DNA of 64,000 bases from Thermoanaerobaculia bacterium (GTDB lineage: Bacteria > Acidobacteriota > Thermoanaerobaculia > Gp7-AA8). The position numbers and the translations under genes are program-made. The stretch lies in contig DASXHZ010000029.1 in assembly GCA_036488085.1 (NCBI GenBank), positions 42,860 through 106,859 on the forward strand. Reading direction: 5' to 3'. The notes beneath the pieces are model-generated. The model did no database searches. It was not told where the DNA came from and saw only the letters and a program-made list of their open reading frames with translations. This document shows, one piece after another, positions 21,749 to 54,872 of the stretch (position 1 is the stretch's first letter; every line of letters starts with the position of its first letter).

Positions 21749-22267
21749 CTAAAACGAGCGCAACAGGATGCGCTGTTCCCCTTCGTCGGCCACATGCATG
21801 CGGCTGACGCCGGAATTCCAGAAGGCCCAGTCGTGGCTGACGCCGGTGACCATGAGCGACTCGTCGGGGCAGAGCTCGCCGAGGGCGAGGCCGAGGGTCT
21901 GGACGTCAGTCGAGTCCTCGCTGCGTACGACGAATGTCGACTCGAACGGCAGCTCGACGACGACGCCGAGCCGTTCGATTGCTTCGTGCAGTTGCCGGTA
22001 ATCGGCGCCGGGCGTCAGGCTGTGACGGATCAGAAGGAAGTCGCGCGAGGTCGAGAACTGAGTCCGCGCCACGAGCAGCCGGGCATCATGGGCGACGTGC
22101 GAGCGCATCCAGCGGACCAGCAGGGCGGCATGACGAGACTCGTGGAGCCACACCTGCCAGCTTTGATCGAAATTCGGCTCGGCCCCGAGGCGGCGCATCG
22201 CGTGCGAAACGTCGACGGTCAACTCGCCTTCGTAGCAGATCTGGAACAGCTTGATCTCCCCCATCAC
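21749..22267 (-). CDS. Hypothetical cytoplasmic protein
   Basis: 172-aa ORF with coding-like composition. No motif recognised. Confidence 0.45.
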   Translation of the reverse strand: MMGEIKLFQICYEGELTVDVSHAMRRLGAEPNFDQSWQVWLHESRHAALLVRWMRSHVAHDARLLVARTQFSTSRDFLLIRHSLTPGADYRQLHEAIERLGVVVELPFESTFVVRSEDSTDVQTLGLALGELCPDESLMVTGVSHDWAFWNSGVSRMHVADEGEQRILLRSF

Positions 22268-22304
22268 ACCCTCCCAAGGTCAATGCTGTTGGATCAATCG
22301 TAGC

Positions 22305-23600
22305 ATGGCGACGGCGCGCGGCTTCACGAAGAAGAACGTGCTCGACTACTACCGCCGCGCGGCCAGGGTGCTGCTGCCGCACCTGAAGAACGTGCCGCTG
22401 TCGTTCAAGCGCTATCCCGACAGCATCGACGGCGAGTCGTTCTGGGAAAAAGACGCGCCGTCGTTCACGCCGAAGTGGGTGAAGACCCTCGCCGTGTCGC
22501 GCCGCGGCGAGGGAGAAGGCGACATCCACTACATCGTCGTGAATGACGTCAAGACGCTGAGGTGGCTCGTCGAGGTCGGCGGGATCGAGCTGCATCCGTT
22601 TCTGCATCGTGCGCCGAAGCTCGACGTCGCGACGAGCGTGGTCTTCGATCTCGATCCCGGCAGCGGCACGGACATCGATGACTGCTGCGACGTCGCACTG
22701 GTCCTGCGAGACGCCCTCGCGACGCTGAAGCTGAAATCGTTCGCGAAGGTGAGCGGGTCGAAGGGCGTGCAGGTCTACGTCCCGCTCAACACGAACGCCA
22801 CCCATGAAGCGACCGAGGCGTTCGCACGGTTCGTCGCGGACACGCTCGCACGAGCACACCCGAAGGGGATCGTCTCGAAGATGGCGAAGCAACTCCGTAC
22901 GGACCGCGTCTTCATCGACTGGAGCCAGAACGCCGATTACAAGACCACGGTCGCGGTGTACTCGCTCCGCGCCAAGCGCGAGACGCCGTTCGTCTCGATG
23001 CCGCTAGCGTGGAGCGAGGTCAAGAAACACGCGCCCCTCGAGTTCCCACCCGACGCCGCGCTCCGCAGGATCGCGAAGAAGGGCGACCTGTTCGCACCGG
23101 TGTTGAAGCTGAAACAAAAGCTGCCGCGAGGTTTTGGTGTAGCGCCGCCGACTCGGCGGCGTCCAGGCGGCGAGTCGGCGGCGCCACACAGAAGCCTCCC
23201 AAAGGAAGGTTCCCAATCTGGGCGCCGCCTCTTCGTCGTCGTCAAGACCGACCAGGCGGGCGACGAGCTGTGGCTCGACGTCGGCGGCAAGTTCGAGCGG
23301 TGGATCCTCCGGCCGGACCGCGAAGGCGGCTCCAGCCTCATCGCGCGGTTCGCCGGCCAATTCCCTGTCCAGAAGGAGTACTACGCCGGCAAAGTGCCGC
23401 CCGAGTGGCGCAAACGCGTGAAACTCGAAGACGCGGGCGCGTATGAGGTGATCGAGGGGAGCTACGAGCGGCTTCGCCTCGATCTCTGGTTCACCGGGAA
23501 GGTCCTTTTGGGCCAGTGGATTCTCGAAAAGATCAACCCGGAAGAGACGCATCGAAGCTGGCGATTGTCACCCGTCTTGCGTCTACACTCTTCCCGATGA
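22305..23600 (+). CDS. NHEJ-type DNA polymerase/primase, LigD polymerase-domain protein with ~150-aa C-terminal extension
   Basis: LigD-Pol blocks VVFDLDPGSG and SGSKGVQVYVPL. Start MATARGFTKKNVLDYY. C-terminal tail shows weak phosphoesterase-like similarity (see findings). Confidence 0.8.
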   Translation: MATARGFTKKNVLDYYRRAARVLLPHLKNVPLSFKRYPDSIDGESFWEKDAPSFTPKWVKTLAVSRRGEGEGDIHYIVVNDVKTLRWLVEVGGIELHPFLHRAPKLDVATSVVFDLDPGSGTDIDDCCDVALVLRDALATLKLKSFAKVSGSKGVQVYVPLNTNATHEATEAFARFVADTLARAHPKGIVSKMAKQLRTDRVFIDWSQNADYKTTVAVYSLRAKRETPFVSMPLAWSEVKKHAPLEFPPDAALRRIAKKGDLFAPVLKLKQKLPRGFGVAPPTRRRPGGESAAPHRSLPKEGSQSGRRLFVVVKTDQAGDELWLDVGGKFERWILRPDREGGSSLIARFAGQFPVQKEYYAGKVPPEWRKRVKLEDAGAYEVIEGSYERLRLDLWFTGKVLLGQWILEKINPEETHRSWRLSPVLRLHSSR

Positions 23601-25033
23601 GCGACCCCGCCCCCCAGCCCGAGCCGCCGGTGCGCGAGCAGCGCGACACGTGGCTCACGCGCTTCCGTGAGACGCGGCTGATCGTCTGGGGATGGCTGAC
23701 CGACCCCGCGGTGCTCGTCTATCGGCGTGAGGCGACCGGCCGCCACAAGGCGCGCGTCCTCACCGTGGAGTTCTTCCTCTTCGTCCGCGAGGTCGCCCGC
23801 GAGTTCTACGAGATCCAGGGGACGTCGCGCGCCGCGTCACTCGCCTACACGACGCTTCTCTCGCTCATCCCGCTGCTCGTCGCCTTCACCCAGGTCCTCC
23901 GCCGCTACTTCGGAACGCTGTTTCCCGACTTCCAGTCGCAGATCGACAGCGTCCTGAACGTCGTCATACCCTACCAGTCGCCGACGCTCACGTACCACCT
24001 CGCCCGCTTCGCCGAGAACGCGCAGGCCGCCTCGACCCTCGGCGCGATCACGTTCATGGTCATCGCCTTCCGCCTCTTTCTCGCGGTCGAGTCGACCGTG
24101 AATCAGATCTGGAAGGTGCGGAGCGCGCACGGATACCGCCAGAAGATCATGGCGTTCACCATGCTGTTCTTCTGGGGCCCGCTGCTCATGGGCCTCTCGT
24201 TCACGACCACGACGATGCTCGAGCGCAACCGCTACCTGCGCGTGTTGCTCAAGCACGACATCATCTTCGCCATCGCGCCGGTGGTCATCCTCTTCATCGC
24301 GTTCACGATGCTCTTCTGGCTCGTCCCCTCGGCCAAGGTGAAGCTGGAGTCGGCCGCCATCGGAGCGCTCGTCACAACGTCGCTCTTCACCCTCGTCCGC
24401 TGGGCCTTCGGCGTCTACTCCAATCACCTCTTCAGCGGCCGCTTCAACCTGATTTACGGCGCCGTCGGTCTCGCGGTCATCTTCCTGATCGCGATCGAGA
24501 TCATGTGGGTGGTCATCCTCCTCGGCGTCGAGATCAGCTACGTCTTCCAGAACCTCTACGGCGTCCTGCGCGCCACCGAGCAGCGGATCGGCGACGAGCC
24601 GCGCTACGACGTCTACTACGCTCTTCGCGCCCTCATCGAAGTCTGCCGGCGCTTCGACCGCCGCGAAGACATCCCGTCGTCGTACCGCCTCGCCGAGCAG
24701 TTCGGAACGACCGATCCGCAAATGCTGCGCGTGATGCGGAAGCTAGAAGACGCAAAGCTCGTCAAGGTCGTCGGCGGCGACTACCCCGGCTACCTCCCCG
24801 CCTGCGATCCCGACCGCATCACGGTCGAAGAAGTCGTGATGCAGGTGGAGGGCGCGCGGCGCGACATGCCGGAGCTCGAATCCGACAGCGAAGAGCGCCG
24901 CCTCATCCGCGAGCTGATGGACCGCCTCAACGTCTGCCTGACCTCCGCCCTCGACCGCACCACCGTCGGCCAGATCGTCCGGCAGCTTTACTCGCCGCGG
25001 GCGGCGCGGCGGGATGACGCGGCGTCGTCGTGA
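23597..25033 (+). CDS. YihY/BrkB-family inner-membrane protein
   Basis: Conserved YihY core (RAASLAYTTLLSLIPLL ... FLIAIEIMWVVILLGVEISY). Start at MSDPAPQ overlapping the ligD-pol stop. Confidence 0.85.
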   Translation: MSDPAPQPEPPVREQRDTWLTRFRETRLIVWGWLTDPAVLVYRREATGRHKARVLTVEFFLFVREVAREFYEIQGTSRAASLAYTTLLSLIPLLVAFTQVLRRYFGTLFPDFQSQIDSVLNVVIPYQSPTLTYHLARFAENAQAASTLGAITFMVIAFRLFLAVESTVNQIWKVRSAHGYRQKIMAFTMLFFWGPLLMGLSFTTTTMLERNRYLRVLLKHDIIFAIAPVVILFIAFTMLFWLVPSAKVKLESAAIGALVTTSLFTLVRWAFGVYSNHLFSGRFNLIYGAVGLAVIFLIAIEIMWVVILLGVEISYVFQNLYGVLRATEQRIGDEPRYDVYYALRALIEVCRRFDRREDIPSSYRLAEQFGTTDPQMLRVMRKLEDAKLVKVVGGDYPGYLPACDPDRITVEEVVMQVEGARRDMPELESDSEERRLIRELMDRLNVCLTSALDRTTVGQIVRQLYSPRAARRDDAASS

Positions 25034-25043
25034 CGCGTCACGA

Positions 25044-25286
25044 TTACTCGCGTGCGACAGCCGCGGCCAATTCTGTGATGTCCTCGAAGTAGTGCCGATG
25101 CGTTTTTCTCAACGCATCTTCGCTTTCGGCCTGAAGCAAGACGACTTCTCGTTGTATTCCGTCGCGATGCAACTGAAGCTCGCGCTCGAGCCCCGCATTC
25201 TGGGCCAAGAGACGATCACTGTCTGCGTAAGGCCGGATGCTCAAGAGCTCTCCACGTGAGCGATCGTATTCAAGCAAGAAGATCAT
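25044..25286 (-). CDS. Small hypothetical protein (80 aa) overlapping the 3' end of the RelA/SpoT-domain gene; candidate cognate partner
   Basis: ATGA-type overlap region at 25295-25298. Lies in the same low-GC island. No known domain. Confidence 0.45.
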   Translation of the reverse strand: MIFLLEYDRSRGELLSIRPYADSDRLLAQNAGLERELQLHRDGIQREVVLLQAESEDALRKTHRHYFEDITELAAAVARE

Positions 25287-25294
25287 TCGGAACC

Positions 25295-25990
25295 TCAACC
25301 GGGTTTGACCGGCCCGTCAAGCAACAATTGTATGGCTTTCAGAAGCTCATTCCGGCCTGCTCGTAGTCCTTGGGCAATTGCGGCACGGGCTGCGTCAGCT
25401 TGGGCAGGATCCGCCTCCAGTTTTTCGACTTCTTCGATCACTCCAGACGCAACGTCGAGCGCGCGCCTCGTCGATTCCGGACCCCCGCCGTACTTGATTG
25501 CCGGATCGTTCAGGCCGGCGAACTTCTCGCACATTTCAGCCCAAGCATGCTGAAGAGCAGTGCGAATCTGAACTTCGATCGTTTTCCCGCCCTCGCGGAC
25601 GACGAGATGAACTGCTCGGTATCCATGGCTCGGCTTCAGCCGTCGATCCAATACCGTAACGTCATTAAATGCGCGCGCTATTGCTTCGACGGTGCGATCC
25701 TGCTCCCCCATGTCGTCCACAACTGCTCTGCAGCCTGCGATGTCCTGCATCTGCGATAGACGAATCGATTCGCGCTTGAGCTTTTCGGCTATCGAACTGG
25801 TCAGTTTTGAGGGACGCCCTGTGACCGACAAACACGTCACGCGATAGATGCGTTCGACAACCAGGTTGTAGGCCGGTTCGAACGTGAGCTTATATTCATC
25901 AAGAGTTCTCAGGTCAGCCTCATCAAACTCTTGCCGACGCAACCGATCTCCGAGACGGTCGATCTGCGCGTTGCTGAGATGTTTCGCCAC
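25295..25990 (-). CDS. RelA/SpoT-domain protein (small alarmone synthetase-like nucleotidyltransferase; toxSAS-like)
   Basis: Synthetase-domain blocks KLKRESIRLSQMQDIAGCRAVV, GYRAVHLVV, EVQIRTALQHAWAE. 231 aa. No HD hydrolase domain. Locally low GC. Confidence 0.8.
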   Translation of the reverse strand: MAKHLSNAQIDRLGDRLRRQEFDEADLRTLDEYKLTFEPAYNLVVERIYRVTCLSVTGRPSKLTSSIAEKLKRESIRLSQMQDIAGCRAVVDDMGEQDRTVEAIARAFNDVTVLDRRLKPSHGYRAVHLVVREGGKTIEVQIRTALQHAWAEMCEKFAGLNDPAIKYGGGPESTRRALDVASGVIEEVEKLEADPAQADAARAAIAQGLRAGRNELLKAIQLLLDGPVKPG

Positions 25991-26022
25991 GACGGCGAAA
26001 TCTTATCGCGATGATTCGTCTC

Positions 26023-26799
26023 TCAAGTGCGGCGGCGGCCCGCCGCCGCCCCACTGAGCTCCTGACGCCGCTTCCGGATGATGTAGACGCGGCGGAAGGT
26101 CTCGTAGGCGACGGTAGTCATCGTTACCCATAGGAGGCCGGCGGTGACCCCGGCGCCGACGTCGCTGATCCAGTGGACGCCGAGGTAGACGCGAGAGAGG
26201 GCGACGCCGATGACGAGCGTCGTCGCGAGGGCGAGCGCGGCGGCCTTCCAACGCCAGCGGACGTGGGCGCGCAACGCGAGGTACGCGAGCGCACCGAAAA
26301 CGACCGTCGATCCCATCGCGTGGCCGCTTGGGAACGAATAGCCGCTCGCGCGCATGAGCATCTGCGCGACGTCGGGCCGCGCACGCGCGAAGTAGCGCTT
26401 CAGCTCCCAGTCGAGAGCGCCGCCGCCGAGCGACGTGAACCCGAGGTACAACGCCCATCGAAAGCGCTTCCGCACGAGAAAGACGATCAGGACGATGCCG
26501 CCGATCACCGCGACGCCGACCGGCCCGCCGATGGTCGACATCACGTCGAAGAACGATGTCGCACTCGCGAACCGCTTCGCGACCGCCCAGTCATGGACGC
26601 GGGTGTCGATCTTCTGGAGCACGGGACTCTTCGAGTGGACGAGCTCTGCCAGATCGAGGAACTGGTCTCCGGCCCATGCCAAGAGGAGGCCGGCGGCGAC
26701 GAAGATGACGACCACCGGCAGGTAGTCGTGAAATCGCCACCGCGACGCCATCCGGTTCGCGATCACCTTGCCGAACCGGCCGATCGGCGGATGGACCAC
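26023..26799 (-). CDS. PAP2-family phosphatase (membrane)
   Basis: PAP2 motifs KRYFARARP, SFPSGHA, SRVYLGVHWISDV. Confidence 0.85.
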   Translation of the reverse strand: MVHPPIGRFGKVIANRMASRWRFHDYLPVVVIFVAAGLLLAWAGDQFLDLAELVHSKSPVLQKIDTRVHDWAVAKRFASATSFFDVMSTIGGPVGVAVIGGIVLIVFLVRKRFRWALYLGFTSLGGGALDWELKRYFARARPDVAQMLMRASGYSFPSGHAMGSTVVFGALAYLALRAHVRWRWKAAALALATTLVIGVALSRVYLGVHWISDVGAGVTAGLLWVTMTTVAYETFRRVYIIRKRRQELSGAAAGRRRT

Positions 26800-42244: not shown

Positions 42245-45206
42245 GCTCCTTCTGCGTGACGCCGTACAGCTTCGCCACCGCCTGATCGACTTCGTCGTCC
42301 ATGTCCCGGCCGGCGTGAGCGCGACGGGCGAGGCGCGTCAGCGTGGCAGCACTTTCGATCGGCACCAGCGGAAGTTGCGCAACGGTGCGGCCGAACATTC
42401 GAAAATGTGCATCCTTCGCGCGCTCGGCAACGGCGAGCAGCAACGCATTGGCAATGGTGGAGTTGAGGATCGCGCTGAGCGCGTACGCCTCGTCGAGCGA
42501 GGCCGCGTCGATCGAGTAAAGCGTCTGGTTGGGAACGAGCGGCACCGCGCGGCCGTTTACGTCAACGGAGTCGGGCAGCACCGCGGCGGTCATTCCGCGC
42601 GAGACGTCCTTCCACGCGACCTTGATCCCGACATGCTCCGGCTTCACGTAGGCCAGCGAAAAATCAGAAGGGTCGACGCCGCGCGCTGCGGCGAGGTTCC
42701 GCAGCCAACGCGGAGGAGTCTTCCAACCTTTTCGCGGCGGCCACACCATCCACTCCGAAGCGCCGGCACTCCAACGTTTGAGATCGCGTCCGCGCACGCA
42801 GCGCGCGACATGCGCCAGCGGGATGCAGTGGCGTTCACCCGTGATGAGCGCCGAGCCGCGGACGCGGCATTCGCCCAGGAAGAACGCGTGGTTGTCGCCC
42901 GTCTTCACGCCCATGAGCGGGCGGCGGCCGAGCGTGATCGCGAGCGGCCGGTGGGCGGCACGAAGACGGCGCAAAACGGCGGCGGCATCGGTCGGTACGA
43001 GCGCCCACTCGCAGGTCGCCGCGAGGTCTTCGTGCGTGAGGCGAAAGGAAACATCGTCGTCGACGACGAGCACCTGCCCGCGCGGTCGTCTCTTCGCGAG
43101 CGTCAGACCGAGCGGGAACGTGTCGGCGTCGAAATGACGCTTCGCGCTCGCGCTCCAGTCTTCGATCGCAACGACGTCATGCTGCATCGCCGCGCGACGC
43201 AGAGGCGCGGCATATCCGGCATTGAGAATCTTCGCCGGCATCAGCATCGACACGACGCCGCCCTCGGCTGCAAGCGAGAGGGCACGCTCGAAGAAGGCGA
43301 GCGAGAGATCGGGCTGGTGAAATGCGGCGCCGCCGTACGCAGGCCGGAAGAACGCGTATCGATCCGCCACCATCCGTTTCGCGCGCGCGTCGATGCGCGC
43401 GTTGCGGACCCAAGGCGGATTGCCCGCCACGACGTCGAAGCCGCCGCCCGCCATCACCGGCGCGAAGTGGACGTCGAACGAGAAAAAGTCGAGCGTCCCA
43501 TCTTCGATGCGATCGAGCGTGCGGCGATGATCGGCGATACGCGCGTGCAGCTCACGGCAGCGTTCGAGGTCGGCGTTCAGCGCCCGTCCGAAGAGATCGT
43601 GTTGCGGAGCCGTGAGGTGCCGCAACTCCGCCTCATCGGCGTCGATGGAGCGCGCCACGAGATCCGACGCCAGGCGGCGATCGTTCTCGCGAATCAGACG
43701 CGCGAGCGCCGGCCGCTCGTCGCGCGGCGAGTGACGATAGCGGTTGAGCAGGTCGCTCTGCGCGCGCAACGCGTAGACCCATTCGCGATAGATCTCGCCG
43801 CGCGAGTCGCCGAGAAAGTCGGCCGGGCCGAGGAGGGAATTGCCCTGGAGAATGTTCCGGTCGAGGTTCGGAAGGGGCGGGATGTCTTCAACCTCGGCGT
43901 CGGTCGTCGAGACGATGGCGAGCCAGAGCCGCAACTCGCAGAGGCGGACCGCTTCCGGCTTGAGATCGACGCCGTAGAGCGATCGCTCCACGATCTGCTG
44001 GCGAAGGTTCGCGGCAACCGGTACGTTCGCGTCGCCGCTCAGCGTTCGCGTCAGCCGCTCGATGACGCCGAGCGACGACAGCAAGAATGCCCCCGAGCCG
44101 CACGCGGGATCGAGAACCGTGATCGACTCTAGTCGCCCGAGCTTCTCCAGCGAGTCGCCTTCGCCGAGCCACTCGACGACCGCCCGTTCGGTGAGCACGT
44201 CGACGATCTCTCGCGGCGTGTAGAAGCTGCCGCTTGCCGCACGTTCGCCGGCGGCCATGAGCGACTCGAACACTTTGCCGAGCATCTCCGGGTCGACATG
44301 CGTGCCGGCGGAGTCGCGTTCGTTGCTCGAAAAGTCGAACCGTTCGAAAACGTCTTCGATGATGCGGCGCATCAAATCGTCATCGACGTCGAGCGACGGC
44401 TGCCGCCATTCGAATGCCGACGGCTCGAAAAGACCGCCATTCAGATACGGGATGCGGCCGAGCCGCAGCGCGGTGATATCGCGATCGCGCAGCGGCGTGT
44501 TGAGACAGCCGAAGAAGAGTGGCGAGAGCACAGTCGCGAAAAATTCGCGCTGCTGCAGCCGGTCGAACAGGAACCGGCGCTCGCCGTTGAGCCACCCTTT
44601 CTCCTGAACGAACGACAGAAACAGCAATCGCGACAGGATCAGCAGCGCCTCGGCGTCACACGCATCGCGCGACTCCTGGGCGCAGCTCGCGGCAAGCGAC
44701 TTCGCAACCTCTCCTACGGCGTCGCGGAATCGCTCGAAGAATCGCCGCGTGACCGATTCGCGGTCGAGCGCGAGGTCGAAGACCTTCGCCAGCGCGTTCG
44801 GCTCCGTCGCCGCGAGGAGATTGAGGCGGTCGATCGCGTGCGATGACGGCGATTCGAGATCGACGTCGAGACGCCGAAGCGTGCGATGTGGCGACAGGTC
44901 GTAGACCGATAATGAGCCATGGCGCTCGTGCAGCACGGCGGACTTCGTCAGCACGTTGTACTCGCGATACGTCTTCAGGAACTCGAACAGCGCTCCCTCT
45001 TCCGCGTCGCCGCGGAGATGAAAGAGATCGAAGCGGCGCAGGCGCGCCGCGAGTGAGAACGAAGACGTACCGTTCCAGCCAACGGCAACACCGGCGCGGC
45101 GCCACTCGGCGGGATCGATGGCCACCGACGCAATCGCGTACCCGAGGTCGCGAAAGAGGGCGAGGGTGTCGCCGTGCAGCTCACGGATGCGCGCGGCGGT
45201 CAGCAC
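42201..45206 (-). CDS. PglX/MmeI-like (Type IIL / BREX-type) gamma-class N6-adenine DNA methyltransferase, 1001 aa
   Basis: Motif X/I FYTPREIVDVL ... LDPACGSGAFL. Motif IV VVAGNPPWV. Upstream helical block LLILSRLLFLSFVQEKGWL typical of the MmeI/PglX family. Characteristic C-terminal ...AKLYGVTQKELATL. Confidence 0.85.
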   Translation of the reverse strand: MLTAARIRELHGDTLALFRDLGYAIASVAIDPAEWRRAGVAVGWNGTSSFSLAARLRRFDLFHLRGDAEEGALFEFLKTYREYNVLTKSAVLHERHGSLSVYDLSPHRTLRRLDVDLESPSSHAIDRLNLLAATEPNALAKVFDLALDRESVTRRFFERFRDAVGEVAKSLAASCAQESRDACDAEALLILSRLLFLSFVQEKGWLNGERRFLFDRLQQREFFATVLSPLFFGCLNTPLRDRDITALRLGRIPYLNGGLFEPSAFEWRQPSLDVDDDLMRRIIEDVFERFDFSSNERDSAGTHVDPEMLGKVFESLMAAGERAASGSFYTPREIVDVLTERAVVEWLGEGDSLEKLGRLESITVLDPACGSGAFLLSSLGVIERLTRTLSGDANVPVAANLRQQIVERSLYGVDLKPEAVRLCELRLWLAIVSTTDAEVEDIPPLPNLDRNILQGNSLLGPADFLGDSRGEIYREWVYALRAQSDLLNRYRHSPRDERPALARLIRENDRRLASDLVARSIDADEAELRHLTAPQHDLFGRALNADLERCRELHARIADHRRTLDRIEDGTLDFFSFDVHFAPVMAGGGFDVVAGNPPWVRNARIDARAKRMVADRYAFFRPAYGGAAFHQPDLSLAFFERALSLAAEGGVVSMLMPAKILNAGYAAPLRRAAMQHDVVAIEDWSASAKRHFDADTFPLGLTLAKRRPRGQVLVVDDDVSFRLTHEDLAATCEWALVPTDAAAVLRRLRAAHRPLAITLGRRPLMGVKTGDNHAFFLGECRVRGSALITGERHCIPLAHVARCVRGRDLKRWSAGASEWMVWPPRKGWKTPPRWLRNLAAARGVDPSDFSLAYVKPEHVGIKVAWKDVSRGMTAAVLPDSVDVNGRAVPLVPNQTLYSIDAASLDEAYALSAILNSTIANALLLAVAERAKDAHFRMFGRTVAQLPLVPIESAATLTRLARRAHAGRDMDDEVDQAVAKLYGVTQKELATLRRFVDHRLAR

Positions 45207-51906: not shown

Positions 51907-53594
51907 TGAGTTGCCGGTTGCCAGTTGCCGGTTGCCGGATCGCGGCCCTCCTTGTGCTCGCCGCCTGCACGAATACGCCAGCACCCAAAAGCATGACGAA
52001 GACGAACGACTTGATCCTCATCGGCGGCACGGTGGCCGTCGGTCCGCAGCAGACGCCGCAGAAGTACGTCGCGATCTACGTGAGCGACGGCGTGATCCGC
52101 GACATCGGTACGCCGGACGCGATCCGGAAGGCGCATCCGAACACGAACGAGATCGGCGCGCCGAACGCCACGATTCTTCCCGGTCTCACCGACGCGCACG
52201 GGCACCTCTACGGCCTCGGCCTGTCGCTCGATCTCGTGAATCTGGTCGGATCGGCTTCGTATGACGAAGCGATCGCACGGGTGAAAGAGCGCACGGGCAG
52301 CGTTCCCGCGGGTGACTGGGTGCGTGGACGCGGATGGGACCAGAACCGCTGGCCGGTGAAAGAGTTCCCGACCGCCGCGCCGCTCGACGCCGCGATCCCC
52401 GATCATCCGGTGTGGCTCAAGCGCGTCGACGGCCACGCGGGCGTCGCGAACAGTGCCGCGATGCGCGCGGCCGGCATCACGCGCGAGACGAAGGACCCCG
52501 AGGGGGGGCGGATCATCCGCGATGCCTCAGGGAATCCAACTGGGACGTTCATCGACGACGCGCAGGAGCTGATCGAGAGCAAGATCCCGGCGCCGAGCTT
52601 CGCGCAGCGGAAGCAGCAGGTGCTCAACGCCGCGAAAGACATCGCGCGCAACGGCCTCACGGAGATGCACGACGCCGGTGCGGACGGCGAGACGATCCGC
52701 GCGATGCGCGAGCTGGTCGACGAGGGCCGCTTCCCGATCCGCATCTACACGATGCTTTCCGGTGACGACCCGAAACTGCTCGCGGAGTGGTTCGCGAAGG
52801 GAACGCTGATCGACCACGGCGGACGGCTGACGATCCGCTCCGTCAAGCTGTACGCGGACGGCGCGCTCGGCTCGCGCGGCGCGCTGCTGCTGGCGCCGTA
52901 CAGCGACGATCCTTCCAACACAGGTTTGCACGTCACGAAGCCGGAGGTCATCGGCGCCATCGCGAAGGAGGCGCGGACTCACGGGTTCCAGGTGAACACG
53001 CACGCAATTGGCGACGGCGCCGTGCACGAGGTGATCGGCGAGTACGAGACGGCGGGCGTGACGCCGCAGGACCGCTTCCGGATCGAGCACTTTCAGATCG
53101 TGCCGCCCGAGGACTTCGGGCGCATCGCGCGCGACGGGATCATCGCGTCGATGCAGCCGACGCACGCCACGAGCGACATGCCGTGGGCGGAGCGGCGCGT
53201 CGGACCGGAACGGATCAAGGGCGCCTACGCGTGGCGGACGGTGCTCAACAGCGGCGCGCGGCTGGCACTCGGATCGGACTTTCCCGTTGAAGACGTGAAT
53301 CCGTTCTTCGGTATCTACTCGGCGGTGACTCGCCAGGACCAGCAAGGCAATCCGCCCGGCGGCTGGATGCCGGAGCAGAAGCTGACGCTGGCCGAGGCGA
53401 TCCGTGGGTTCACGAGCGACGCTGCGTATGCGGCGTTCCAGGAAGACTCCCGCGGCACGATCGAGGTCGGCAAGCTCGCCGACTTCACGATCGTCGACGG
53501 CGATCTCTACACCGCGCCGGCGAGCACGCTGTTCAAGACGAGGGTGATGTACACGATCGTGAACGGCGAGGTGGTTTACCAGGCACCGTCCTAG
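51906..53594 (+). CDS. Amidohydrolase-family (Amidohydro_3) lipoprotein
   Basis: Start ATG 51906 overlapping the nadK stop. Lipoprotein signal ...LLVLAAC. HGH... metal-binding and C-terminal amidohydrolase blocks. Confidence 0.85.
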   Translation: MSCRLPVAGCRIAALLVLAACTNTPAPKSMTKTNDLILIGGTVAVGPQQTPQKYVAIYVSDGVIRDIGTPDAIRKAHPNTNEIGAPNATILPGLTDAHGHLYGLGLSLDLVNLVGSASYDEAIARVKERTGSVPAGDWVRGRGWDQNRWPVKEFPTAAPLDAAIPDHPVWLKRVDGHAGVANSAAMRAAGITRETKDPEGGRIIRDASGNPTGTFIDDAQELIESKIPAPSFAQRKQQVLNAAKDIARNGLTEMHDAGADGETIRAMRELVDEGRFPIRIYTMLSGDDPKLLAEWFAKGTLIDHGGRLTIRSVKLYADGALGSRGALLLAPYSDDPSNTGLHVTKPEVIGAIAKEARTHGFQVNTHAIGDGAVHEVIGEYETAGVTPQDRFRIEHFQIVPPEDFGRIARDGIIASMQPTHATSDMPWAERRVGPERIKGAYAWRTVLNSGARLALGSDFPVEDVNPFFGIYSAVTRQDQQGNPPGGWMPEQKLTLAEAIRGFTSDAAYAAFQEDSRGTIEVGKLADFTIVDGDLYTAPASTLFKTRVMYTIVNGEVVYQAPS

Positions 53595-53661
53595 GTCAAC
53601 ATCAGAACGAAGCCGGGTATACTTCCCGCACAGCATCTCCCCTTAAATCTGGAGGACACCC

Positions 53662-54705
53662 ATGGCCGAGCGGTCGAATACCGCCGGGTTGATCGAGTTT
53701 GCGATCAACTTGAAACGAAGTTCACACCAACTGCTCAGTTGCCTTGACGTGGTTTACGGTGCGTTCCTCTCATATTTTCTCTGGGTCGTTGGTCAGACGA
53801 TTACTTCCTATTTTGAGCGGCCAACTGCTCCGGCCGGCTTTAAATTAGTGTGCATGTCGTTGATGTTTCTCTTCATCATCGAGGACTTCAGGGACGTGAA
53901 GCTCATCACGTCCATCTGCGGCTATCACCTCTCGTCATTTCGATTCTTCCTCGACATCGCCATAGTCCTTATACTTTTTACGACTACTCTTTTCCTGTTT
54001 GGCAAGAACCCCAATGCGCAACCTAACAGAAACTTTCTGTTTTCCTTTGCCATCGTTTTCTTTCTGTGCACAGCTTGGGCTCTTCTGCTCACGAAAGACA
54101 AACGTGACGTTCCGCCAAACTACAGTGTCGCCGTCGCTGCATCTCACTTTGTCGTGGGGTGCACTTGGCTGGTTCTCTGGGCGTTCGTTTCGCAGGCCGG
54201 AGTGCTCTGGCGACTCCCGCTCGTGAGTCCGGCCGTGCGCCTCATCATGATCGCCGTGTTTTCCATCTACTACATCATGGCGTCATGGCTCTTCGGATCG
54301 CTACGACGTCGCGGCATACCAGTGGACGACTACGGCGAGATGATCGTGCCGAAAGTAGCGCGAAACGTCGTCGCGCTCTTCCGGTCGGCGGCAGGCGTGT
54401 TCCGCAGCGGTCTCTCACGCGGAGAGCCTAGATGGAGATGGTTTCGCGGTCAGCCCCGCTCGACTTCTAATCACTACGTCGTCGTGGCGCAATTTGCTGA
54501 CGGCACCTCGACGCCGATGCAGCTCACCGACTATGTCAACCTTCAGGTACGCCGCGGTCACCACTGTGTTTATGTAACTGAAGACGGCGCCGCGCATGAG
54601 GGTGACGGAGCTACAATTCGGTTAACGGCCACCCCAGAACAGGACCAAAAGGCTCAGTTTCTCGTACAAGAGAAGAATCCGCCTTCTGAAAGGCATCGGA
54701 CATGA
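53662..54705 (+). CDS. Multi-TM membrane protein of unknown function with ~100-aa C-terminal soluble domain, low-GC island
   Basis: GGAGG RBS 8 nt upstream. About six hydrophobic helices. Local GC ~50% versus ~68% genome-wide. No recognisable domain. Confidence 0.55.
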   Translation: MAERSNTAGLIEFAINLKRSSHQLLSCLDVVYGAFLSYFLWVVGQTITSYFERPTAPAGFKLVCMSLMFLFIIEDFRDVKLITSICGYHLSSFRFFLDIAIVLILFTTTLFLFGKNPNAQPNRNFLFSFAIVFFLCTAWALLLTKDKRDVPPNYSVAVAASHFVVGCTWLVLWAFVSQAGVLWRLPLVSPAVRLIMIAVFSIYYIMASWLFGSLRRRGIPVDDYGEMIVPKVARNVVALFRSAAGVFRSGLSRGEPRWRWFRGQPRSTSNHYVVVAQFADGTSTPMQLTDYVNLQVRRGHHCVYVTEDGAAHEGDGATIRLTATPEQDQKAQFLVQEKNPPSERHRT

Positions 54706-54872
54706 GTACGTTGTATTATTTTGTTTTCGCTGTTGGCCTTGTCGGGATCGTCCTTGGTTTCGTCGGCCTTCACCTCAGCCTTCGGCGTTTCGAGGACGAT
54801 TTCCACGACGAAGTGCGCCATCATGCCGACGGCGGCAATCAGATGACCCTCCCCCGCCTCCAGATAAAGAAC
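54702..54872 (+). CDS. Small (56 aa) single-TM protein overlapping the upstream gene (ATGA)
   Basis: ATG 54702 overlaps TGA 54703-54705. MSTLYYFVFAVGLVGIVLGFVGLHLSLRRF... Below the ORF-table size cutoff. Confidence 0.35.

Follow-up and report, generated by a model that had tools for sequence, protein, structure and literature searches.

A probable CapRel/PhRel-type toxSAS toxin-antitoxin pair, in unfused two-gene form, in a low-GC island of a Thermoanaerobaculia genome

A 64,000-nucleotide stretch of a Thermoanaerobaculia (Acidobacteriota) metagenome-assembled genome (GenBank assembly GCA_036488085.1, contig DASXHZ010000029.1, forward-strand positions 42,860 to 106,859; hereafter the window, in whose own numbering all positions are given) contains a short island of low guanine-plus-cytosine (GC) content that probably encodes a CapRel/PhRel-type toxSAS toxin-antitoxin pair in its unfused, two-gene form. 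The first-pass annotation of this DNA had proposed a toxSAS-type toxin-antitoxin pair here, on the strength of a RelA/SpoT synthetase gene adjoining a small open reading frame (ORF), and this call is supported: when whole proteins are compared, the synthetase sides with CapRel and PhRel and not with the RelQ orthologues, and the partner gene is conserved beside its homologues. That annotation had thus correctly spotted the island, but the type of system is one already known. The cassette is an uncharacterised, new example of a system of a type shown to work in mycobacterial phage and Salmonella, and does not constitute a new kind of system.

Among the characterised members of this group, PhRel:ATphRel (gp29:gp30 of Mycobacterium phage Phrann, a prophage-encoded defence system) and the unfused CapRel:ATcapRel of Mycobacterium sp. 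AB308 have been validated as toxin-antitoxin pairs and encode antitoxins that are homologous to one another (PMC7229694), a homology that extends to the C-terminal pseudo-zinc-finger domain (pZFD) of fused CapRel proteins (PMC7229694, PMC9712102). CapRelSJ46 is such a fused toxin-antitoxin, whose pZFD blocks the ATP site through a YXXY motif (PMC9712102). Both PhRel and CapRel have been found to inhibit translation specifically (bioRxiv 10.1101/2021.04.30.441581), the entry 7ZTB for CapRelSJ46 in the Protein Data Bank (PDB) is deposited as a tRNA pyrophosphokinase, and pZFD antitoxins are coupled to tRNA-targeting toxSAS (PMC11782079).

The synthetase and its relationship to CapRel and PhRel

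The larger gene of the island encodes a stand-alone synthetase of 231 residues, much as first described: the RelA_SpoT domain (PF04607) is its sole match, HD, TGS and ACT domains are absent, and all of the motifs quoted in the first-pass annotation are present. Its AlphaFold2 model (predicted local distance difference test, pLDDT, 89.3; predicted template-modelling score, pTM, 0.85) comprises one SYNTH domain with N- and C-terminal helices. The features of the gene are as follows.

25295-25990, minus strand: putative toxin gene with a GTG start, encoding the 231-residue stand-alone RelA/SpoT synthetase (toxSYNTH) of the CapRel/PhRel clade (PF04607, E=7e-15; PDC-S33; hhalign; Foldseek)
25562-25816, minus strand: predicted catalytic core, its residues unchanged in 38 homologues
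25814-25816, minus strand: R59, equivalent to CapRelSJ46 R79
25742-25744, minus strand: D83, equivalent to CapRelSJ46 D111
25727-25729, minus strand: R88, equivalent to CapRelSJ46 R116
25619-25621, minus strand: Y124 of the G-loop, equivalent to CapRelSJ46 Y155 and PhRel Y143
25562-25576, minus strand: E139, Q141 and R143 of the EVQIRT motif, in the catalytic core
25298-25480, minus strand: hypervariable C-terminal helical tail, residues 171-231 (predicted helices at 172-193 and 200-225)

Inspection of the alignment of the 38 homologues shows that R59, D83, R88, Y124 and E139 are invariant, and D83 and E139 are presumably the Mg-binding and catalytic residues expected in RelA/SpoT homologue enzymes. 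The equivalences listed above were read from sequence comparison; they place R59 and R88 on the adenine-stacking arginines R79 and R116 of CapRelSJ46, and Y124 on its Y155 (roles from PMC9712102) as well as on the G-loop tyrosine Y143 of PhRel (role from PMC7229694). With its catalytic residues intact, the protein is predicted to be an active pyrophosphokinase toxin of the RelA/SpoT type. Conservation is unevenly spread over the cassette, with a mean pairwise identity across 73 loci of 64% in the toxin core, 56% in the body of the antitoxin and 14% in the toxin tail, the length of which ranges from 33 to 128 residues in the same loci.

The affinities of the synthetase are most apparent in comparisons that use the whole protein. 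It matches positions 6-237 of the 349 positions of the PADLOC profile PDC-S33 (109.5 bits, E=5.6e-32). A literature search on the name of this profile returned no papers; however, the profile can be identified as one for fused CapRel because CapRelSJ46 of Salmonella phage SJ46 matches it end to end (residues 11-370 of 373, E=7e-87), and PhRel of phage Phrann scores 82 bits against it (E=1e-23). The match of the small ORF falls at positions 265-338 (E=6e-7), and the two island ORFs match consecutive parts of PDC-S33 in the correct order. When a profile of the 38 toxin-family members was compared with PDB sequences, CapRelSJ46 (7ZTB, 9ERV) came out on top (E=1.8e-14, 57 bits) over positions 4-191, which include the N-terminal helices, and was followed by RelQ (6e-13, 52 bits), matched over the core only. 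In a tblastn search of 50,697 phage records the best match was Phrann gp29, i.e., PhRel (35.5% identity, E=1e-12), and CapRel of SJ46 was second. Profile-profile comparison with hhalign aligned the toxin family with PhRel over 178 columns (probability 99.1%, E=8e-19), the common stretches running from SKxQIDRLG to IKYGGG and including PSHGYRAVH against PHSGYRAVH.

Comparison of predicted structure gave a concordant picture: a Foldseek search with the toxin model returned CapRelSJ46 (7ztb) as the top match (E=1e-10, template-modelling score 0.65-0.69 over about 249 columns), with RelP (3e-7), RelQ (1e-6), Tas1 (1.9e-4) and FaRel2 (3.5e-4) as further matches. Against the equivalog model for RelQ (NF053588, GTPPhKinYjbM) the toxin attains 32.7 bits and does not reach the cut-off of 320 bits. 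In a simple neighbour-joining tree with a single, partial outgroup sequence, all of 100 bootstrap replicates recover the toxin family as monophyletic; its sister is a PhRel-like actinobacterial group in 67 of them and CapRel in 30. In whole-protein sequence and predicted structure the synthetase most resembles CapRel and PhRel.

The partner gene encodes an ATphRel-type protein

The second gene lies directly downstream of the first on the same strand and has the following features.

25287-25296, minus strand: gene junction, read from the sequence, with GAGG at 25293-25296 overlapping the TGA stop, a 6-nucleotide spacer before the ATG and an 8-nucleotide intergenic gap
25044-25286, minus strand: putative antitoxin gene with an ATG start, encoding 80 residues; homologue of ATphRel and ATcapRel with a predicted pseudo-zinc-finger-like (pZFD-like) fold (homology and predicted fold)
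25086-25103, minus strand: T62-H63-R-H-Y66-F67 motif, a candidate active-site plug equivalent to YXXY (conservation and alignment)

The genes had been described as overlapping by 4 nucleotides. The synthetase stop codon, however, occupies 25295-25297 and the ATG at 25286 sits 8 nucleotides past it, so that an overlap arises only for an 84-residue reading from the TTG at 25298. The small ORF has its own ATG and a GAGG ribosome-binding site, and all 60 of its homologues begin at an M-I/L-F that matches the ATG at 25286. In related loci the gap varies from ATGA-type overlaps of start and stop codons to about 30 nucleotides, which is consistent with coupled translation.

The partner had also been held to fall outside the described classes of antitoxins, and this is refuted, as it is a clear homologue of ATphRel and matches the antitoxin part of the fused-CapRel profile. 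Comparison by hhalign of a 60-sequence antitoxin profile with ATphRel gives a probability of 96% (E=4e-9) over 62 columns, which is near the full length, and the sequence of gp30, MPGFLIEFNRRTRERRVREF...LETLKRTHSRYFTG, visibly aligns with that of the window antitoxin, MIFLLEYDRSRGELLSIRPY...EDALRKTHRHYFED. The layout is likewise comparable, gp30 (71 residues) lying 7 nucleotides downstream of gp29. A hidden Markov model (HMM) of the antitoxin also matches a 76-residue gene product encoded 3' of a synthetase on an Arthrobacter plasmid (5e-9) and the C-terminal domain (residues 301-362) of a fused 347-residue Nostoc protein (1.5e-4) that is also matched by the window synthetase. Searches of PDB sequences with the antitoxin, both by phmmer and with the profile, yielded only a likely spurious match to an endoglycosidase, and the direct alignment by hhalign to CapRelSJ46 is weak (E=0.012), though it falls on the correct region (residues 307-362).

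In the AlphaFold2 model of the antitoxin (pLDDT 88), a strand at 2-8 and another at 13-20 precede a helix at 22-42, a strand at 47-52, a helix at 56-62, a turn at the HxxYF motif and a final helix at 70-78. Foldseek found no significant match to this small model; among solved structures its predicted fold is nearest to ATfaRel2. In the weak alignment with CapRelSJ46, H63 and Y66 fall on Y352 and Y355 of that protein (AYPNYF), and ATphRel carries the same HxxY variant, THSRYF, in alignment with the window motif. Across the 73 loci the motif is close to invariant (T62 in 72, H63 in 73, Y66 in 72 and F67 in 73). On these sequence comparisons, the 80-residue protein is an ATphRel-type variant of a known antitoxin family, in which HxxY replaces YxxY.

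Two further observations concern the antitoxin family at large. On the Pseudarthrobacter psychrotolerans plasmid NZ_CP047899.1, an ORF that is absent from the PLSDB gene table (L092:2322-2573), situated 3' of a gene labelled 'GTP pyrophosphokinase family protein', matches the antitoxin HMM (E=1.6e-9) and is probably an antitoxin gene that was omitted from the table or left unannotated. Additionally, three homologues carry the antitoxin domain within larger proteins, N-terminally in two (244 and 267 residues) and at residues 110-185 in one of 193 residues (P0216, P0221 and P0189); these may be multidomain antitoxins or artefacts of gene calling.

Pairing, distribution and mobility of the cassette

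The co-occurrence of the small ORF with RelA/SpoT homologues, which the first-pass annotation had made a test of its proposal, is pervasive: of 93 synthetase genes found at 88 loci in a wide range of phyla, 87 are followed immediately, on the same strand, by the small gene. The remaining six include two without room on the contig, three in which the partner is displaced or frameshifted, and the fused CapRelSJ46. Synthetase homologues number more than 2454 at E<=1e-5, and of the best 120 of these, 119 measure 166-269 residues and one (P0108, 326 residues) is an in-frame fusion with the antitoxin. When clustered at 50% identity the antitoxin family forms 1244 groups, and of the 150 members listed nearly all are stand-alone proteins of 75-100 residues.

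That both ORFs correspond to consecutive parts of a single-protein profile, and that a close homologue such as P0108 is an in-frame fusion, might raise the prospect that the two genes are remnants of a fused CapRel gene that a nonsense or frameshift mutation has interrupted, which would make the locus a pseudogene. This was rejected as vanishingly improbable, the split form itself being conserved: the two-gene arrangement prevails in the 87 pairs just mentioned, none of the 93 synthetase hits within the clade is fused in one ORF, and the narrow size ranges of both families, together with the shared methionine start of the antitoxins, are those of separate genes. Further, the small gene possesses its own ATG and GAGG, and both proteins are strongly conserved. 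P0108 itself, from a 4,064-base-pair metagenome contig, is a natural toxin-antitoxin fusion in which the end of the toxin tail is replaced by a short Ser-rich linker; it implies that split and fused forms interconvert within this clade, as has been reported for CapRel.

A scan that used one genome per GTDB species recovered a relative of the module in at least 520 species. The phyla concerned include Acidobacteriota, Planctomycetota, Nitrospirota, Chloroflexota, Omnitrophota, Elusimicrobiota, Gemmatimonadota, Cyanobacteriota and Dormiibacterota, along with several proteobacterial classes, and the uncharacterised clade to which the window pair belongs occurs chiefly in Acidobacteriota, Planctomycetota, Nitrospirota and candidate phyla. 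The window antitoxin is itself 100% identical to a protein of a Thermoanaerobaculia metagenome-assembled genome, which agrees with the origin of the window.

The low GC content noted in the first pass is confirmed, both in overall composition and at third codon positions. The island (25044-25990) has 56.1% GC against 64.6% for the whole window, which places it in the lowest 1.3% of 950-base-pair windows, and the GC content at third codon positions (GC3) is 0.58 in the synthetase gene and 0.62 in the small ORF as opposed to 0.83-0.93 in five flanking genes. The same tendency is seen elsewhere: in 77 of 79 loci the GC content of the module is below that of the flanks, with a mean difference of 7.8 points. 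The genomic contexts are diverse. In a 70%-identical relative the pair occupies the same site between PAP2 and BrkB genes, the flanking proteins being 70-94% identical to those of the window; in another Thermoanaerobaculia genome it is found between lipid A-type biosynthesis genes and LytTR/LiaF-type regulatory or membrane genes; and at other loci it adjoins genes for a sigma-54 regulator and an ABC transporter, or for a UvrD helicase and leucyl-tRNA synthetase. The foreign base composition and the unrelated genomic contexts suggest that the cassette was horizontally acquired. At one further locus (L091:2153-7831) the toxSAS pair is accompanied by several genes for PIN-domain proteins and one for a Phd/YefM-type antitoxin, in what resembles a toxin-antitoxin island.

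Comparison with the characterised systems

Of the validated pairs, PhRel:ATphRel offers a close parallel to the window cassette. In both, the toxin gene comes first and is followed, after a gap of 7-8 nucleotides, by an antitoxin of 71-80 residues; homology between the toxins extends over about 178 columns and takes in the N-terminal helix; and that between the antitoxins covers nearly their full length, with F-L-I/L-E-Y/F-D/N-R and T-H-x-R-Y-F in common. They differ in that identity is of the order of 31-39% and that the window toxin has 231 residues against 292, with a different C-terminal tail. Further, the window pair is chromosomal and not borne on a prophage, and its toxin falls in a monophyletic family of its own, with members in many Gram-negative and candidate phyla.

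CapRel is known in both unfused and fused form, represented respectively by CapRel:ATcapRel and CapRelSJ46, and the latter is the solved structure best matched by the window toxin, in sequence profile as well as in Foldseek. Like CapRel, the window family occurs in split and, rarely, in fused form, but it differs from CapRelSJ46 in several respects: the window system consists of two genes parted by a stop codon, 8 nucleotides and a separate ATG; its plug motif has His where CapRelSJ46 has the first Tyr; the antitoxin and the pZFD show marginal similarity when their sequences are compared directly; and the variable element is the C-terminal tail of the toxin rather than the pZFD. With the FaRel2:ATfaRel2 pair of Coprobacillus sp. 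D7 (PDB 8PU3) no sequence similarity is detectable (7% identity), and FaRel2 is a distant match to the toxin.

The cassette extends the validated CapRel/PhRel family of toxSAS into Acidobacteriota and many environmental phyla with few cultured members, and provides a likely function for a large family of 'hypothetical proteins' of about 80 residues that match no Pfam model. In the branch represented by the window, as in ATphRel, the candidate plug motif takes the form HxxYF instead of YxxY. Such loci would be better annotated as a toxSAS toxin and its antitoxin than as a 'GTP pyrophosphokinase' beside a hypothetical protein.

Housekeeping function and substrate

Several observations weigh against the assignment to CapRel/PhRel-type toxSAS or against parts of it. 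In an alignment of 115 core columns the toxin shares 42% identity with RelQ of B. subtilis, as compared to 39-42% for PhRel-like proteins and 34% for CapRelSJ46; because the identity to RelQ is as high as that to the PhRel-like proteins, the core alone does not split the toxin from the housekeeping small alarmone synthetases. The pair is flanked by housekeeping genes and not by a defence island or prophage, and a sigma-70-like promoter was looked for at the cassette and not found. Kurata et al. report that those toxSAS that use tRNA have no sequence signature (bioRxiv 10.1101/2021.04.30.441581). Finally, the antitoxin body is well conserved, at the 56% given above, whereas the pZFD of CapRel is the most variable region of that protein and sets its phage specificity (PMC9712102).

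The first two of these points are also what one would expect of a housekeeping RelQ/RelP-type small alarmone synthetase that makes (p)ppGpp for stress signalling, with the small protein as a non-essential regulator. RelQ and RelP have the same SYNTH fold and catalytic motifs and are significant matches in the profile (6e-13) and Foldseek (1e-6 to 3e-7) searches, and the site among housekeeping genes is occupied in the relative with 70-94% identical flanking proteins. Nevertheless, this reading is very improbable. The toxin scores 32.7 bits where the RelQ (YjbM) equivalog demands 320, and CapRel and PhRel outscore RelQ in whole-protein comparisons and share with the window protein the N-terminal helices (SKxQIDRLG) that RelQ lacks and that lie outside the RelQ alignments. 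RelQ has no antitoxin partner, whereas the partner here is homologous to a validated antitoxin; indeed, RelQ and RelP are non-toxic and do not occur in toxin-antitoxin-like pairs (PMC7229694). The two-gene pairing, the foreign GC3 and the unrelated contexts in many phyla are, moreover, features that fit a mobile cassette and not a core stress gene.

A further reading accepts a toxSAS pair but holds that its toxin makes (pp)pApp, thereby depleting ATP in the manner of FaRel or Tas1, without modification of tRNA. The substrate cannot be read from the sequence, as noted by Kurata et al. (bioRxiv 10.1101/2021.04.30.441581), and the core has diverged little from synthetases that pyrophosphorylate nucleotides, both of which leave room for such an activity. 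Other evidence makes it rather unlikely. Tas1 is a far weaker Foldseek match (E=1.9e-4) than CapRel, and no FaRel structure is among the matches. In the gene-listed loci neither an HD-domain small alarmone hydrolase nor any other known antitoxin domain was found beside the pair, although Tis1-like partners were not specifically searched for. Further, the pZFD-type partner keeps a Y-containing plug, a feature tied to inhibition of the donor site in tRNA-targeting toxSAS, whereas the pZFD of AT2faRel has lost the motif (Dominguez-Molina et al., PMC11782079). On balance, analogy with PhRel and CapRel tips the scales slightly towards tRNA as the substrate of the window toxin.

Predicted mechanism and the site of sensing

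As a CapRel/PhRel-type pair, the cassette could be expected to work as follows, its toxicity, tRNA substrate, plug mechanism and defence role all being extrapolated from the family. [quoted passage not shown] The antitoxin, translated from the same mRNA 8 nucleotides downstream of the toxin gene, would bind the toxin in trans and insert H63 and Y66 of its T-H-x-R-Y-F motif between the adenine-stacking R59 and R88, so blocking the ATP donor site. The model for this step is the placement of YXXY between two arginines, with blockage of the ATP donor site, as predicted for CapRelSJ46 and seen in the crystal of FaRel2:ATfaRel2 (PMC9712102, PMC11782079). Loss or displacement of the antitoxin, for instance on phage infection, would free the toxin and lead to arrest of the cell. 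Whether the cassette serves phage defence, as its characterised relatives might suggest, is an evenly balanced question.

The distribution of conservation invites a more speculative suggestion. In CapRelSJ46 it is the fast-evolving pZFD by which a phage protein is recognised. As the antitoxin is conserved along with its T-H-x-R-Y-F plug and the toxin tail is hypervariable, it is conceivable, if doubtful, that the tail and not the antitoxin recognises the trigger or sets specificity; the sensing function would then have shifted between the partners within one homologous family.

The surroundings of the island and other features of the window

The two neighbours named in the first-pass annotation, YihY and a PAP2 phosphatase, were both found.

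23516-25033, plus strand: BrkB/YihY-Rrf2 fusion gene (PF03631)
26023-26799, minus strand: PAP2 phosphatase gene, upstream of the synthetase gene

The 'YihY' protein combines a BrkB/YihY membrane domain (PF03631) with a C-terminal Rrf2-type helix-turn-helix (PF02082), an architecture that recurs in two relatives (L001 and L004). On the other side of the island, 32 nucleotides separate the PAP2 gene from the synthetase gene. A GC-rich inverted repeat at 26026-26055, with 14-nucleotide arms 2 nucleotides apart (AGTGCGGCGGCGGC..GCCGCCGCCCCACT), coincides with the 3' end of the PAP2 gene, about 35 nucleotides upstream of the toxin start codon; it is followed by no T-run and could attenuate read-through from PAP2 into the cassette. 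A search of the island ends for flanking direct repeats, tRNA genes and Rfam families revealed nothing meaningful. Two plus-strand ORFs inside the island (81 residues, 25014-25259; 129 residues, 25370-25759) were set aside as spurious in view of the strong conservation of the minus-strand genes.

The first-pass annotation had further drawn attention to a perfect 14-base-pair palindrome, CGTGACGCGTCACG, as marking the island boundary and spanning the convergent stop codons. The palindrome is real and in fact extends to 16 base pairs (25028-25043), but it covers the BrkB stop codon only, that of the small ORF (25044-25046) lying just outside, and its significance as a boundary is not upheld. Palindromes of 14 base pairs are as frequent in the window as chance would have it (12 seen against 12.1 +/- 3.6 in first-order Markov simulations), the syntenic relative L001 lacks the 16-base-pair palindrome at the corresponding junction, and the palindrome is not followed by a T-run; hence it was rejected both as an island boundary and as a terminator.

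Elsewhere in the window, a second low-GC region at 53300-54800 has the lowest GC content of all (about 54% in 950-base-pair windows). It includes an ORF at 53662-54705 on the plus strand for a protein of 347 residues, which has no significant Pfam match (DUF4131, E=0.016) and has the appearance of a multi-pass membrane protein whose C-terminal part is soluble; the region may be another foreign insertion. Lastly, within the LigD primase-polymerase gene (22251-23600), the segment 23123-23233 was matched on both strands by hairpin RNA models (mir-9456, GA-cis and others), all at scores below the gathering threshold, which suggests a long, near-perfect palindrome or hairpin within the coding sequence.

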